The translations under genes were made by a program, and so were the position numbers. A stretch of DNA of 64,000 bases from Actinomycetota bacterium (GTDB taxonomy: Bacteria; Actinomycetota; Geothermincolia; Fen-727; Anoxymicrobiaceae): positions 33,700 to 97,699 of the forward strand of contig JAHJCO010000041.1 in the NCBI GenBank assembly GCA_018831265.1, read 5' to 3'. Shown here piece after piece: positions 7,897 through 46,698 of this stretch (position 1 is its first letter; each line of letters opens with the position of its first letter). The notes beneath the pieces were generated by a model that was not told the origin of the DNA, did not search any database, and saw only the letters and a list, made by a program, of their open reading frames with translations.

Positions 7897-9702
7897 ATGA
7901 GAGACGGCACGATAGGGGGCATGTTCTTCAACCGCGTGGAGAAGTACGGGGACCGGGTGATGATGAAGCACAAGGGCCCCGGAGTCTGGACCGACATCTC
8001 CTGGAACGAGTTCGGCGAAAAGGTCCGTCAGCTGGGCCTCGCGATGATAGTCTCGGGGGTTCAGCCGGGCGACCGCGTGGCGATCTTCTCGCCCAACTGC
8101 CCGGAGTGGCAGATGGCGGACATGGCCATCCAGTCGATCGGGGCGGTCAACGTCCCGCTGTATGCCACCATAACCGCGAAGCAGGCGGAGTACATACTCG
8201 AGGACTCCGGCTCGAAGATGGTTTTCGTGGGAAGCGAGGACCACATGAACAGGGTCCTGGAGGTCCGCGACAACCTGCCGGCGCTGGAGAAGATCGTGAC
8301 GATCTGCGAGACATCCTCCGATCACCCGGCGGTGATGAGCTTCGAGGAGCTTCGCATGTTCGGCGCGACCGGCGCAACGGACGACGAGTTCGGCGACCGC
8401 CTGGAGGCGGTGAAGCCCGACGATCTCTGCAGCATCGTCTATACATCGGGGACGACCGGGAACCCCAAGGGTGTAATGCTCACCCACCGCAACTTCATGT
8501 CCAACGTCCGGGCGGCATCGAGCCTGGTCGAGGTGGACGACTCGGACATCTGCCTGTCGTTCCTCCCACTGAGCCACGTGCTCGAGCGCATGAGCGGGTA
8601 CTATACGGCCGTCTACAACGGCGTCAGCATCGCGCACGCGCAGTGCATCGACACGCTCGCCGAGGACATCGCGGAAATAAAGCCCCACTGGATGGTCAGC
8701 GTCCCCCGGCTGTACGAGAAGGTCTACGCCGGCGTCCAGGCCAACGTCGCGGCCGAGCCGCCCGTCAAGCAGAAGATCTTCAACTGGGCGGTGGGCATAG
8801 GCCGTCAGGCGAGCCAGTTGAAGGTCGACCGGAGGCCTTTCCCCCTCGGGCTCAAGATAAAGTACGCGATCGCGAGCAAGCTGGTCTTCTCCAAGATAAG
8901 CGAGAAGCTTGGCGGCCGGCTCCGGTTCTTCTTCTCGGGCGGCGCCCCCCTCGCGCGCGAGATCGCCGAGTTCTTCAGCGCCCTGGGCGTTACCATCCTG
9001 GAGGGATTCGGGCTCACCGAGACATCGCCGGTGCTCACCGTGAACCGGCCCGACGCGATGAGGTTCGGCTCGGTGGGAACTCCCCTGCCCGGCGTCCAGG
9101 TGAGGATCGCTCCCGACGGCGAGATACTGGCCAGGGGACCGAACATCATGCGCGGCTACTGGAACAGGCCCGCCGATAGCTCCGAGGCCCTGGCCGACGG
9201 CTGGTTCCACACCGGCGACATCGGCCACATCGATCCCGAAGGGTTCCTGTTCATCACCGACCGCAAGAAGGACCTCATCGTCACGGCGGGCGGCAAGAAC
9301 GTCGCCCCCCAGAACGTGGAGAACGCGCTCAAGCTGGACAGCTACATCGAGCAGGCGGCGGTAATAGGCGACCGGCGCAGGTTCATCAGCGCGCTCATCG
9401 TGCCGGCGTTCGAGGTGCTGGAGGCATGGGCCGGGGAGAACGGCATCGATACCGCCGACAGGGCGAAGCTGGTCGCCGACCCCAGGGTCGTCCGGTTCAT
9501 GCAGCAGCGCGTGGACGAGGCGCAGGCCGACTTCGACCGCCACGAGCGGGTGATGAGGTTCGTGCTCCTGGGCGAGGAGATGACCGAGGAGTCCGGCCTC
9601 CTCACACCGACGCTGAAGGTCAAGCGCAAGGAGGTCGCTTCCCGGTTCGCCGAGCAGATCGAGTCGATGTACGCCGAGGAGCCCGAGCCGGCGCTGGTCT
9701 GA
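7897..9702 (+). CDS. long-chain-fatty-acid--CoA ligase (AMP-binding enzyme family)
   Basis: 601 aa. AMP-binding motif YTSGTTGNPKGVMLTHRN. AGGAGA sits 6 nt upstream. Divergent from the AOR/ADH operon. Confidence 0.9.
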   Translation: MRDGTIGGMFFNRVEKYGDRVMMKHKGPGVWTDISWNEFGEKVRQLGLAMIVSGVQPGDRVAIFSPNCPEWQMADMAIQSIGAVNVPLYATITAKQAEYILEDSGSKMVFVGSEDHMNRVLEVRDNLPALEKIVTICETSSDHPAVMSFEELRMFGATGATDDEFGDRLEAVKPDDLCSIVYTSGTTGNPKGVMLTHRNFMSNVRAASSLVEVDDSDICLSFLPLSHVLERMSGYYTAVYNGVSIAHAQCIDTLAEDIAEIKPHWMVSVPRLYEKVYAGVQANVAAEPPVKQKIFNWAVGIGRQASQLKVDRRPFPLGLKIKYAIASKLVFSKISEKLGGRLRFFFSGGAPLAREIAEFFSALGVTILEGFGLTETSPVLTVNRPDAMRFGSVGTPLPGVQVRIAPDGEILARGPNIMRGYWNRPADSSEALADGWFHTGDIGHIDPEGFLFITDRKKDLIVTAGGKNVAPQNVENALKLDSYIEQAAVIGDRRRFISALIVPAFEVLEAWAGENGIDTADRAKLVADPRVVRFMQQRVDEAQADFDRHERVMRFVLLGEEMTEESGLLTPTLKVKRKEVASRFAEQIESMYAEEPEPALV

Positions 9703-9745
9703 TCACTTTGGGGGCCTACCCGGCCCCCCTCCGCAAGGGAGACAA

Positions 9746-9790
9746 GAGCGGGCGGCATGCTTCATGCGCCGCCCGCTCGACCCGTTTTAT
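9746..9790 (+). terminator. intrinsic terminator: 11-bp GC stem (GAGCGGGCGGC...GCCGCCCGCTC) followed by a GTTTTAT tract
   Basis: Perfect inverted repeat plus T-run 45 nt after the fadD-like stop. Confidence 0.55.
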
Positions 9791-9855
9791 GGCGACCTCC
9801 CGCTTCGAGTGCTTTAATTGACTCGAGCCACTGTGCGTCTACCGGGAGGATGACC

Positions 9856-10014
9856 ATGTGTCCGAACTACGTCGAGAAATGCTGCACCCTGGAGCCGGAG
9901 AAGGGCGAGGTCGCCCAGCCGCTGCCGGTCTACTTCTGCAAGGGGCTCAAACCGGACTCCCACCTGGAATGCCCGGTGTTCAAGACCAGGGCGGCCGAGG
10001 AGAAGAAGGAATAG
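9856..10014 (+). CDS. small cysteine-rich hypothetical protein (52 aa, 6 Cys)
   Basis: MCPNYVEKCCTLEPEKG...YFCKG...LECPVF. GGAGG lies 7 nt upstream of ATG 9856. No family recognised; it could be a leader peptide for the downstream membrane-protein/MmpL genes. Confidence 0.35.
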   Translation: MCPNYVEKCCTLEPEKGEVAQPLPVYFCKGLKPDSHLECPVFKTRAAEEKKE

Positions 10015-18369: not shown

Positions 18370-18557
18370 GTCACTCCCCGCCCGAGCCGATAACAGATGA
18401 GTCGTGTGGCTATTCTCTTCCCACCCGGGGGACAACGCAAGGCCGCCGGCCCTTGTGCTACACAGGCAGCCATTAGCGTTAGAATGGTGCAAAAGGGTCA
18501 GGCACTTTTGCACGAGTCGAGGAACAGCCCCTGGAAGAAGACGGGAGGGTCCCTGCG

Positions 18558-20854: not shown

Positions 20855-20950
20855 TCGGGGTCAGGCACGATTCAAGTCACAAGCTGATTGAGCCCGGCCT
20901 CTCAGGCCGGGATCTGACTCAGTTTGGGGTCAGGCACCATTCAATTCACT
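20855..20950. repeat. composite intergenic repeat: GGGGTCAGGCACGATTCAAGTCA - GATTGAGCCCGGCCTCTCAGGCCGGGA (hairpin) - GGGGTCAGGCACCATTCAATTCA
   Basis: Units recur at 27567-27650, 28003-28045 (reverse complement), 42748-42800, 46640-46665 and 23706-23760 (variant), always intergenic. Confidence 0.75.
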
Positions 20951-23712: not shown

Positions 23713-23887
23713 GCCCATGCTTGAGCCCGGGCTCTAAGCCCGGGATTCATTCGGGGATTGGGCGCGGACTTCAGTCCGCTGACGGATCGCCTACCGGGAC
23801 TGAAGTCCCGGCCCAACCTCACTGCTGATTGGGAGCGGACTTCAGTCCGCTGACGGATCGGGCTTGGGCGCGGACTTCAGTCCGCGA
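23706..23887. repeat. GAGCCCGGGCTCTAAGCCCGGG hairpin + 4 GGACTTCAGTCC/GGACTGAAGTCC units (same element as 3052-3168)
   Basis: Read directly. Shared spacer CCTCACTGCTGATTGGG. Confidence 0.75.
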
Positions 23888-27566: not shown

Positions 27567-27650
27567 CTGGGATAGGGGTCAGGCGGGAGTCTATTCATAG
27601 ACTCCGTGATTCGACTCCCGCCTGACCCCGGTTTGAGTCGGACGAACGGA
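27567..27650. repeat. 17-bp inverted repeat GGGGTCAGGCGGGAGTC ... GACTCCCGCCTGACCCC flanking 21 bp (member of the GGGGTCAGGC repeat family)
   Basis: Read directly; intergenic between E1 alpha and the DUF2769 gene. Confidence 0.7.
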
Positions 27651-27900: not shown

Positions 27901-28041
27901 GTGTCACCTCCGTTAACGGGCTTCCAGGGTAAGGAAGCGGGTAACACTAGACTACGTCCGAAGCGTCATGATTCCTGCGCGCCGGCCTCAGGTTCGATCC
28001 ACCGAGATTGTGAATTGAATCGTGCCTGACCCCGGTTTTAG

Positions 28042-39815: not shown

Positions 39816-40925
39816 TCAGTCGTTGGGGACAAGGACGTAGCCGGTTCCGCCGCAGTCCTGGCAGGTCACCCAGCCGGTCCAGCCCATCTCGTCGGTCATC
39901 CACCAGCCGCCCGTGCCGCCGCAGGTGCCGCAGACGACCCAGATATCGCTGGGGTACGGAGAGGGCGCGGGCTGTGCGTTGCGCCTGGCCTCCTCGGCCG
40001 CGGCGGCCGCCGCGGCGGCCGCCTTGCGGTTGTTGCACTCGCCTATGACGAAGTTGGCGTAGAAGGCGACCGAGTCCTGTTCCCCCACGAGCTGCTCTAT
40101 CTTCGTCGCGTTCTCGAGAAGGAACGAGCACTTGTCCAGGTAGTCGGGTAGCCCCGAGGCGTCGATGGCGCTGTTGTTCAGGTCCCCGACCGCGGCAACC
40201 GCCTCGTTGGTCCGGTCGTAGGCGCGCTGCCAGGCGTCGTCCCACTCGGCCTGTCGCTGCTTCTCAGCCTCCGCCTCAGCTTCTTCCTCGGCCGCCTTGC
40301 CGCCGCCGGCCTCGGCCGTGTACTGCATCTCGTCGGAGTCACCCCGCTTGTCCGCCCCGGACTCGAGCTCCAGCCTGGCCTCGACGTCCAGCGGCTTGCC
40401 GGTGCCGGAGGTCATCGTATACTCGATGGAGTACTCCTGTTCCGAGGAGCTCGATTTGCACTTGATGCTCTTGTTGATGAGGTTGGAGCCCTCAGAATCC
40501 ACAACCTTGACGAAAAGCCTGGCCTTGCCGTCCTCGGGGAACCTGGCCGTGTAGGCCACGGTCAGCTTGAGCTCGACATCCAGCGGGACTTCGTCCAGGT
40601 CGAGCTCGTCGTCATTCGCCTTCGTCAGATCGATGGACTCCAGCTTTGCCTCGAGGGTCGGTCCACCCCCGACAACGAGCACGAGACCGACGACGGCTCC
40701 GCCCGCCACCAGGACCGAGAGGGCGGTCACGAGGACTATCATCCACGTGGGGATCCTCCTGCCGCCGGAGGAGACCCCGACCGCTGAAGGAGCAACGGCC
40801 GGCGGGACGGCGCCGCGGGCGCGCCGGACCGCGGCACCGGCGTCCACCGCGTCGAGAGGGGTCCCGCAGCTCTCGCAGAACCTGTTCCCCTCGGGGACCG
40901 TCGAGCCGCACTGTTCGCAGTACAT
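39816..40925 (-). CDS. membrane protein: N-terminal zinc ribbon, one TM helix, extracytoplasmic domain ending in CGTCGGTG...CQDCGGTGYV (DnaJ-like CxxCxGxG pair)
   Basis: MYCEQCGSTVPEGNRFCESCG, then TM IVLVTALSVLVAGGAVVGLVLVV. Start taken as the second ATG (40925) for Shine-Dalgarno spacing; the ATG at 40931 is also possible. Confidence 0.5.
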   Translation of the reverse strand: MYCEQCGSTVPEGNRFCESCGTPLDAVDAGAAVRRARGAVPPAVAPSAVGVSSGGRRIPTWMIVLVTALSVLVAGGAVVGLVLVVGGGPTLEAKLESIDLTKANDDELDLDEVPLDVELKLTVAYTARFPEDGKARLFVKVVDSEGSNLINKSIKCKSSSSEQEYSIEYTMTSGTGKPLDVEARLELESGADKRGDSDEMQYTAEAGGGKAAEEEAEAEAEKQRQAEWDDAWQRAYDRTNEAVAAVGDLNNSAIDASGLPDYLDKCSFLLENATKIEQLVGEQDSVAFYANFVIGECNNRKAAAAAAAAAEEARRNAQPAPSPYPSDIWVVCGTCGGTGGWWMTDEMGWTGWVTCQDCGGTGYVLVPND

Positions 40926-41029
40926 CCTCATCACCTCAAGCTCTTGAATCCTCCCCGTACACACAGATTATCGGTCAAACGTGCGCGGTTCCATACCTCT
41001 GAGCAAAAAGGGGTCAAACCTGAGATTTT

Positions 41030-41120
41030 GCGTTTTTTGCATCAGGACGAACCTCGACCAAGACCTCGCGCAAAAAACGCAAAATCTCAGGTTTGACCCC
41101 AATTGGGTAGAATTGGTGTC
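41030..41120. repeat. perfect 31-bp inverted repeat GGGGTCAAACCTGAGATTTTGCGTTTTTTGC ... (29-bp spacer) ... GCAAAAAACGCAAAATCTCAGGTTTGACCCC
   Basis: Read directly; lies in the divergent intergenic region 40926-41120 and ends 1 nt before the methyltransferase ATG. Confidence 0.85.
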
Positions 41121-41870
41121 ATGAGCAAGCAGGGTGAGATCGAGTACCTCGGGAATCTCGGGGACGGGGGCGCGCGGCACGCCGCCGCCAAGCCGTTCTC
41201 GGACGACTCCTGCGCGGACAACCTAATGGAGATCGGCGCCGTTATGCTCCTGCTGCCCCCACCGCCCGCGAGGCTGCTCGACCTGGGCTGCGGGTCCGGC
41301 TGGACCTCGGTCTTCTTCGCCAGGCGCGGGTACGAAGTCACCGGGGTGGATATCGCGCCGGACATGATCGAGCTGGGCAGGCGGGCCGGGGAGCGCGAGG
41401 GGCTCGACAACGTGCGCTTCGCGGTCGGGGACTACGAGAGCCTCGACGTCGGCGCGGAGTTCGACTGCGCGGTCTTCTACGATTCCCTCCACCACTCCTC
41501 CGACGAGCGAGCGGCCCTGGCCTGCGCGTACCGGTCTCTGAGGACCGGGGGCGTCTGCGTGACCAGCGAGCCGGGCAGGGGACACTCCGAGACCCTCCCG
41601 GCCAGGAACGCCGTCAGCATGTACGGCGTCACCGAGCGCGACATGGAGCCGGAGCGCATCGTCGCCGCCGGGCGGGCCGCGGGTTTCAGGTCGTACGAGA
41701 CATACCCGCACGCCAACGTGCTGGTCGCCAGCATGTTCAGGGCCCCCACCCGAAGGCTCCTGAGCAGGGTAGACACCGCTGCGGTCATGAGGACACCGCT
41801 GCGCCTGTCGCTGCTGGCCTATCGCGTGGCGCGCAAGAGGGACAGCGCGATAGTCGCGCTCGTCAAATGA
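41121..41870 (+). CDS. class I SAM-dependent methyltransferase
   Basis: LLDLGCGSGWTSVFFARRGYEVTGVDIAPDMI motif I. Start taken as ATG 41121 (MSKQGEIEY); the ORF-table TTG at 41103 lies inside the inverted repeat. Confidence 0.8.
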   Translation: MSKQGEIEYLGNLGDGGARHAAAKPFSDDSCADNLMEIGAVMLLLPPPPARLLDLGCGSGWTSVFFARRGYEVTGVDIAPDMIELGRRAGEREGLDNVRFAVGDYESLDVGAEFDCAVFYDSLHHSSDERAALACAYRSLRTGGVCVTSEPGRGHSETLPARNAVSMYGVTERDMEPERIVAAGRAAGFRSYETYPHANVLVASMFRAPTRRLLSRVDTAAVMRTPLRLSLLAYRVARKRDSAIVALVK

Positions 41871-42746: not shown

Positions 42747-42803
42747 TCAAGCGATTGAGCCCGGCCTCTCAAGCCGGGAACGTCCGACACGATTGAGCAC
42801 GGC

Positions 42804-46551: not shown

Positions 46552-46698
46552 CTCGTTCCCCCCTTAATCGGTGACCCTGCCGCTACAGGGCAAGATTGTA
46601 CAACGCCCGGCCAGTCCAGTGAATAGCCTGGGGGTCAGGCACCATTCAATTCATTCGCGGGAGGGGGAGCAGGACGGAGCCAAACCTGATCCCGGTAA

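Follow-up and report, generated by a model that had tools for sequence, protein, structure and literature searches.

The 91-nt palindrome upstream of a methyltransferase gene in a 64,000-nt stretch of an Actinomycetota genome (contig JAHJCO010000041.1, positions 33,700 to 97,699; hereafter the window) is almost certainly one copy of a dispersed repeat family whose members are gained and lost between related genomes. On balance, we favour the view that it is a non-autonomous miniature repeat of the REPIN or terminal inverted repeat (TIR) type, a statement that takes in its putative mobilisation by a Y1 transposase. This REPIN-like or "TIR family" reading was chosen because the family consists of inverted units of ~33 nt with GGGGTCAAACCTG ends facing outward and a short, unconserved spacer. 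For annotation, this means that the hairpin should not be entered as a dedicated leader or operator of the methyltransferase gene.

Anatomy and distribution of the repeat

The element is formed by the arm GGGGTCAAACCTGAGATTTTGCGTTTTTTGC and its exact reverse complement (31 of 31 positions complementary) 29 nt apart. Its parts are:

41003..41008, plus strand: flank GCAAAA, able to pair with TTTTGC (41026-41031) across the left core
41010..41040, plus strand: left unit (arm) GGGGTCAAACCTGAGATTTTGCGTTTTTTGC, matched by a profile built from sister-species units only (E = 3.8e-11)
41010-41023: invariant family core GGGGTCAAACCTGA of the left arm, at the outer end of the arm
41041..41069, no strand: 29-nt non-palindromic spacer ATCAGGACGAACCTCGACCAAGACCTCGC, the loop of the hairpin
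41070..41100, minus strand: right unit (arm), identical to the left arm when reverse-complemented (profile match, E = 7.6e-11)
41087-41100: core of the right arm

Spacer sequence varies among members of the repeat family and is not conserved. The GCAAAA flank was seen again at some copies; it is optional and its meaning uncertain. For the 31-mer, 0 matches were expected in 100 shuffles of the window, and the 91-nt segment was predicted to fold into a hairpin of -62.1 kcal/mol as RNA (z = -9.3) and -38.8 kcal/mol as DNA (z = -12.1). The repeat is not an artefact of one assembly, since an independent Logan assembly of SRR2544004 (L061) is 100% identical to the window from 41072 onward. The contig of that assembly breaks inside the right arm, an example of how palindromes of this type break metagenome assemblies.

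An earlier note on this DNA had described a perfect 31-bp inverted repeat with a 29-bp spacer, a match far beyond chance and a location in a divergent intergenic region. All three observations were confirmed, the flanking genes starting at 40925 on the minus strand and at 41121 on the plus strand. The same note had placed the repeat at 41030-41120, with the right arm ending 1 nt before the ATG. These positions were off by 20 nt: the true span is 41010-41100, and the right arm ends 20 nt before the ATG at 41121. It had also raised the possibility of further copies in the genome, and such copies of the arm unit were found, the arms belonging to a multi-copy dispersed family. Within the window itself, a search for the repeat unit returned nothing beyond the two arms. 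A third partial copy, GGTCAAACGTG at 40973-40983, was rejected as a chance-level match (E = 16-21); a more distant orthologous locus (L015) has GGTCAGGCCGG at this place.

The family was traced by an exact scan of 596 Gb, one genome per species, with the outer 20-mer of the arm. In a single Actinomycetota metagenome-assembled genome (MAG), 15 exact matches were spread over 12 contigs; 1 chance match lay elsewhere. This MAG, Actinomycetota bacterium MEGAHIT-group-0.229 (JAZDFZ01, GCA_043807425.1; hereafter JAZDFZ), represents a sister species: its contig 19 (L060, JAZDFZ010000019.1) is syntenic with the window, the nucleotide identity being 89-93%. The window's own species contributed no contig to the matches, having either no representative in the scanned set or a representative without exact copies of the 20-mer.

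With mismatches allowed, JAZDFZ contains 33 units at 12 loci. The unit is ~33 nt long with the consensus GGGGTCAAACCTGAgATyTTGCrTTTyTTGCat. Conservation ends abruptly with the outer GGGG; hardly any variation is seen in the first 14 nt, and more in the TTGC-rich inner part. Units are paired in inverted orientation with GGGG outward, plus-strand units always on the left and minus-strand units always on the right, and are separated by spacers of 23-63 nt (once 178 nt). In an unbiased single-arm search, an inverted partner lay within 200 nt at 11 of the 12 loci; the remaining locus had none. Extra tandem units are frequent on one side at a spacing of 35 or 44 nt, and the units occur as pairs, triplets and quadruplets. 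Within the wider family, short versions of 42-51 nt form single tight hairpins. Every JAZDFZ copy is intergenic, among ordinary genes (gap/pgk/tpi, ndk/mreB, thiolases, acyl-CoA dehydrogenases); units also adjoin AMP-ligase genes. No transposase was seen in the neighbourhoods of these copies. Stems of at least 6 bp around the core were present in 15 of 123 units against ~3 expected, an enrichment that is confined to two subfamilies, and a core held in the loop of a small hairpin was therefore rejected as a universal feature.

Further clusters were located in the window's own assembly (L071 7509-7631) and in a sibling MAG (L072 9877-9990), bringing the window's species to at least three loci (window, L071 and L072). 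Both clusters have counterparts at orthologous sites of the sister species (L071 corresponds to L003, and L072 to L011). The window's own species thus carries the family in multiple copies, some of them ancestral and some polymorphic.

At several loci, the outer CCCC of an element runs straight into the Shine-Dalgarno sequence of the gene that follows (CCCC-GGAGGT-N5-6-ATG), and the hairpin would be immediately 5' of the ribosome-binding site in a read-through transcript. These junctions are:

L071 7618-7645
L003 5790-5815
L072 9977-10003
L011 2193-2220
L008 2745-2778

A first metagenome scan with a 22-mer gave 0 matches. A second scan for two inverted 13-nt cores 36-66 nt apart identified 43 loci with GC contents of 0.51-0.68. 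The inner arms are wholly different between lineages (TGCACTTTG..CAAAGTGCA, AAAGGTGAATT..AATTCACCTTT and CTTATCGTCAGTTT..AAACTGACGATAAG) and still complementary, positions 14-24 showing two to four Watson-Crick pair types and 68-92% pairing. The largest subfamily belongs to Candidatus Aminicenantes, where, along one stretch of 22 kb in a 4.3-Mb genome, 5 of the 12 intergenic regions have the element and copies often begin 1-6 nt past a stop codon. Two near-identical Aminicenantes contigs (L032 603-640 and L046 580-600) differ by a 19-nt tandem duplication (TTAAGCGGGGTCAAACCTG twice) made up of the core and 6 nt of flank, a small-scale polymorphism at the element end. A BLAST search of plasmids yielded chance matches only, and viral contigs contained nothing comparable. 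Rfam 15 gave only generic long-hairpin (miRNA precursor) matches far below the gathering scores, and a literature search with the sequence string retrieved only unrelated primers.

Gain and loss of copies between relatives

Copies of the family are gained and lost, because presence and absence are reciprocal at two sites, one at the methyltransferase gene and one at ndk. At the methyltransferase gene, BLAST breakpoints against L060 together with the alignment defined the following segment:

41012..41106: present in the window, absent from the orthologous site of the sister species

Here the window has 95 nt where JAZDFZ has 11 unrelated nt, between flanks that align almost perfectly, and the comparison of the filled with the empty site revealed no duplicated target. 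The more distant orthologue L015, whose methyltransferase is 85% identical, also lacks the element and has 51 nt of unrelated GC-rich sequence instead. The perfect arms of the window copy are the longest among 50 distinct doublets (31 nt versus a median of ~18), as would be consistent with a young copy. Arm length and the absence of the element from both available orthologous loci suggest that it was gained recently in the window's lineage.

At ndk the situation is reversed. JAZDFZ carries an 80-nt GGGGTCAAACC element immediately after the gene, and the window's genome has no copy of that family there. In its place, the window's own assembly has a ~143-nt inverted doublet of the GGGGTCAGGC(A/G)C family (L070 10416-10558). 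In JAZDFZ, ndk and the element overlap at the 3' end of the gene, whose stop codon comes from the element; the product ends in ...FFGGQT as against ...FFGDD in the window's genome. The 3' ends compared were:

L012 5245-5262: ndk of the sister species
L070 10395-10411: ndk of the window's assembly

Mechanism and rival explanations

A REPIN comprises a pair of inverted REP units plus a spacer, folds into a hairpin and is presumed to be mobilised in trans by a single-copy RAYT, a gene that REPINs typically flank (PMC3337134). The family described here and REPINs such as those of Pseudomonas fluorescens SBW25 (Bertels & Rainey 2011; PMC3337134, PMC3116915) have in common the inverted two-unit layout with a short unconserved spacer, a near-perfect hairpin of ~80-110 nt, an extragenic location and tens to hundreds of copies. 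Both also occur as singlets and tandem clusters, leave no target-site duplication, and hold positions that are partly conserved and partly polymorphic between related genomes. REPs are usually species-specific, whereas the 13-nt terminal core found here is conserved across phyla. Unlike in REPIN systems, no flanked RAYT gene was found in the window and ~0.5 Mb of related loci.

A second resemblance is to the repeats of the RAYT-like genes that Di Nocera et al. 2013 found to be flanked by long terminal inverted repeats instead of REPs, and named "TIRtrons" or "TIRYTs" (PMC3733652). Many TIRs share GGGGWSAS; their families are of moderate abundance, with single, dimeric and clustered repeats, and Acidobacteria have a well-defined group of them (PMC3733652). 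Quentin et al. 2018 assigned TIRYTs to TnpA_REP subclass 2.1, with a C-terminal helix-turn-helix domain and the repeat consensus GGGG[AT][CG]A[CG] (PMC6006769). Like TIR families (PMC3733652, PMC6006769), the units described here are long (~22-35 nt) and non-palindromic, begin with an outer GGGG followed by W-S-A, and are found in moderate numbers, alone, as dimers or in clusters. The core starts with GGGGTCAA, which agrees with GGGGWSAS in 7 of 8 positions. This start coincides exactly with the outer end that had been set independently, by conservation, and the chance of a GGGGWSA match at a fixed position is ~1 in 4,000. Two TIRYT loci that we examined are flanked by GGGGACACCATAC... repeats reading GGGGACAC, again with GGGG outward. 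TIRtrons are distributed in Acidobacteria and other non-proteobacterial phyla; the published TIR families come from cultured species of lineages other than those reported here.

Other likenesses were also considered. Correia elements of Neisseria and RUP of Streptococcus are similar in size (about 50-150 bp), have terminal inverted repeats, are intergenic and may alter the expression of neighbours. They differ in having TA or other target-site duplications and identifiable DDE parents, neither of which was seen here. An integron attC site, too, is an imperfect palindrome (57-141 bp) recognised as a folded single strand, and its outer motif is RYYYAAC...GTTRRRY. The corresponding GTCAAAC...GTTTGAC of the present element matches the attC consensus at 6 of 7 positions; an attC site was rejected on account of single copies among housekeeping genes, and the lack of cassette arrays, extrahelical bases and a nearby integrase. 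Ends of the Tn3 family were rejected as well, having only GGGGTC in common and lacking 5-bp duplications here.

We describe the palindrome, with the qualification given at the outset, as a non-autonomous doublet of ~33-nt units with invariant GGGGTCAAACCTG ends facing outward. A single-copy Y1 (HUH) transposase of the RAYT/TIRYT type, encoded at another place in the genome, would generate the copies in trans. The enzyme would act on the hairpin of single-stranded DNA and cut at the conserved GGGG... foot, a cut that would leave no duplication. At the locus in the window, the element is most likely a passenger, acquired recently, that lies between two divergent promoters with the methyltransferase -10 box just downstream of it.

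Several observations weigh against this explanation. Neither the window nor ~0.5 Mb of related loci contained a RAYT/TIRYT open reading frame (jackhmmer; hidden Markov model from a published alignment), and the only Y1 transposase seen next to cores, at L059, is an ordinary multi-copy IS200/IS605. TIRYT activity on TIR repeats has never been shown experimentally (PMC3733652). The eighth base of the core is A and not S, a departure from GGGGWSAS. A classical REP is a short imperfect palindrome with an unpaired GTAG or CGTC tag; a single unit of the present family is not self-complementary and carries neither tag. In addition, comparison with the sister species does not give a clean indel (11 unrelated nt stand there for the 95 nt), and the call of gain over loss is made by parsimony with one outgroup only.

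The search for a transposase produced one candidate. A TIRYT profile search returned, among its best 120 matches, only Geobacter-like and alphaproteobacterial proteins. In Aminicenantes, a 147-aa PF01797 gene lies between inverted cores (L059 9217-9897), and it was rejected as the cognate RAYT, being an IS200/IS605 TnpA (146 bits with NF033573 versus 41.8 with the RAYT model NF047646, cutoff 80). This insertion sequence (IS) has its own subterminal hairpins CCCCGYGGCTTGCCRCGGGG in direct orientation, and its other copies lie in unrelated flanks. The IS200/IS605 element (9265-9868) is inserted after TTGCAC inside a palindromic core element, and close relatives carry the intact 75-nt palindromic element, i.e. 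the empty site. A 45-nt gene-less derivative of the same IS is present at the equivalent point of another palindromic element (L044 262-307). The IS uses the palindromic element as a target and is not its partner; the hairpin repeats are targets of a single-strand transposon.

Among the candidates of the earlier note was a miniature IS or miniature inverted-repeat transposable element (MITE). The idea of a mobile element stood up, the family being dispersed and the copy absent from two orthologous sites; the classical MITE did not. Such an element, a deletion derivative of a DDE-type IS moved by cut-and-paste through its terminal inverted repeats, would fit the sharp outer boundary of the unit, the ~31-33-bp terminal inverted repeats, the multi-copy family polymorphic between relatives, and extra tandem end copies resembling multiple transposase-binding sites. 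We consider it improbable. In 52 non-redundant elements, target-site duplications of k = 2-9 at offsets of 0-3 were observed close to expectation, and the flanking direct repeats that the note had proposed to look for were not above chance. There is no duplicated target at the filled relative to the empty site, no IS with such ends occurred in the loci examined, plasmids or viral contigs, and the palindrome reaches beyond the GGGG end in some lineages. A different kind of explanation would have the hairpin selected by the host as a terminator, mRNA-end stabiliser, translation modulator or host-protein site, the core being a binding site and the family spreading by its usefulness. Many copies do begin 1-6 nt after stop codons or abut a Shine-Dalgarno sequence (CCCC-GGAGG), the inner arms covary whereas the 13-nt core stays the same from phylum to phylum, and two clusters are conserved between the sister species. 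Yet the window copy, between divergent genes and upstream of a -10 box, is probably untranscribed and has no T-tract; its orthologues function without it; and copies occur in convergent, tandem and divergent contexts alike. No Rfam family was matched, only generic hairpins below threshold, and usefulness leaves the origin of new copies unexplained. We judge this account, too, to have little probability.

A regulator specific to the methyltransferase or zinc-ribbon gene, whether a leader or attenuator or a long operator (e.g. for a MerR-family regulator), is very unlikely. A location within a region of divergent promoters, with a -10-like box (TAGAAT) 7 nt downstream and a MerR-family gene ~1.3 kb away, would suit it. 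The hairpin is, however, absent from the ~90% identical sister species and from the orthologue at 85% identity, both of which keep the TAGAAT box and the start codon, and it lies upstream of that box and of the likely transcription start, so that the attenuator or leader suggested earlier is not supported. The long operator of the earlier note fares no better: identical units stand beside unrelated genes (ndk, gap, thiolases and AMP-ligase genes), and 31-bp arms with variable spacing do not resemble any operator. That the palindrome is an assembly artefact or a phase-variable, invertible switch is hardly credible. Assemblers can create perfect palindromes and invertons are flanked by inverted repeats, but the element lies inside a 98-kb contig, its right arm and flank are 100% identical in the independent Logan assembly, and the family recurs across numerous independent assemblies. 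For inversion, a 29-bp segment is too short, and the neighbourhood contains no recombinase gene.

If the REPIN/TIR-type interpretation holds, the family would be an undescribed one in uncultivated Actinomycetota, with a 13-nt core that is also abundant in Aminicenantes, and the sister genomes provide natural comparisons of filled and empty sites. Should the cognate Y1 transposase be identified, this would become a natural system in which to ask whether "domesticated" TIRYT-type transposases move their repeats. A bolder proposal, which we regard as rather doubtful, is that the GGGGTCAAACCTG-cored doublets form one cross-phylum hairpin family (Actinomycetota, Candidatus Aminicenantes and other lineages from sediment), with TIRYT-type Y1 transposases as its mobilisers, and that the reciprocal presence and absence between two ~90% identical sister genomes and the replacement at ndk would be the first natural evidence of current mobility of TIRYT-associated repeats and of their competition for the same sites.

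Neighbouring genes and related repeats

The divergent intergenic region that holds the element is 195 bp long. The features around it, all outside the element, are:

39816..40925, minus strand: zinc-ribbon membrane protein gene, divergent neighbour (gene call L001 3696-4805)
41108..41113, plus strand: TAGAAT, -10-like hexamer, 7 nt before the ATG
41121..41870, plus strand: class I S-adenosylmethionine (SAM)-dependent methyltransferase gene

The hexamer falls within the 20-nt gap between the right arm and the methyltransferase ATG. In the alignment of the window, L060 and L015, the string GTAGAATTGG(T/G)GTCATG is invariant with or without the element (window 41108-41123, L060 2988-3003 and L015 485-500), and no clear Shine-Dalgarno sequence is present. 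A conserved TAGAAT without a Shine-Dalgarno sequence suggests a leaderless or near-leaderless methyltransferase mRNA, for which TAGAAT would be the promoter. Because the string is invariant irrespective of the element, the putative -10 box and near-leaderless start are placed downstream of the hairpin, which is probably outside both neighbouring mRNAs. A simple sigma-70 scan of the locus detected no full promoter, and a scan of the element for a terminator gave neither a T-run nor a terminator-like call. The element replaces the DNA in which the -35 region of the methyltransferase gene would lie, and a possible effect on the expression of the neighbour would arise from displaced upstream promoter DNA. 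The core was also inspected by eye as a sigma-70 -35 box (TTGACC), an extracytoplasmic function (ECF) sigma factor -10 box (GTCAAA) or a sigma-54 motif, and rejected for misfitting spacings. The 6 nt after the element, AATTGG, recur 4 nt further on (AATTGG-GTAG-AATTGG, window 41101-41116), and the counterpart in the sister species reads GGTTCT-GTAG-AATTGG. The repeat may be the footprint of an insertion event or a coincidence.

A second family has units that start with GGGGTCAGGCAC, followed by (C/G)ATTCAA(T/G)TCA. It was found at:

window 20857-20868, 20926-20937, 28022-28033 (minus strand) and 46631-46642: units
window 27575-27586 (plus strand) and 27618-27629 (minus strand): doublet-like pair
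L070 10416-10558 and L072 12598-12645: copies outside the window

This family also forms inverted doublets with GGGG outward, and it matches GGGGWSAS at 8 of 8 positions. Its doublet in the window's genome occupies the ndk site exactly where the sister species has the GGGGTCAAACC element. The GGGGTCA start that the two families were earlier noticed to share is thus meaningful.

Three smaller repeats were observed alongside these families. A small hairpin, GTGCAAAAGGGTCAGGCACTTTTGCAC, with a GCAAAAG/CTTTTGC stem and a GGTCAGGCA loop (window 18481-18513), is near-identical at three loci of the sister species (L008 1455-1488, L009 7783-7809 and L011 7919-7943), and has the string GGGTCAGGCAC and the GCAAAA/TTTTGC motif in common with the other two families. 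Another hairpin, GC-rich and resembling a terminator (GAGCCCGGCCTCTCAGGCCGGG), is present in at least three copies (window 20890-20911, 42757-42778 and 23723-23744), one of which sits between the two tandem GGGGTCAGGCAC units. Finally, the long spacers of two sister-species elements contain the motif GGGGTCGGAC(G/A)(T/C)TTG (L010 2405-2425 and 2570-2590; L013 7135-7155), arranged as an inverted pair in L010, and this motif may represent a third related repeat family.

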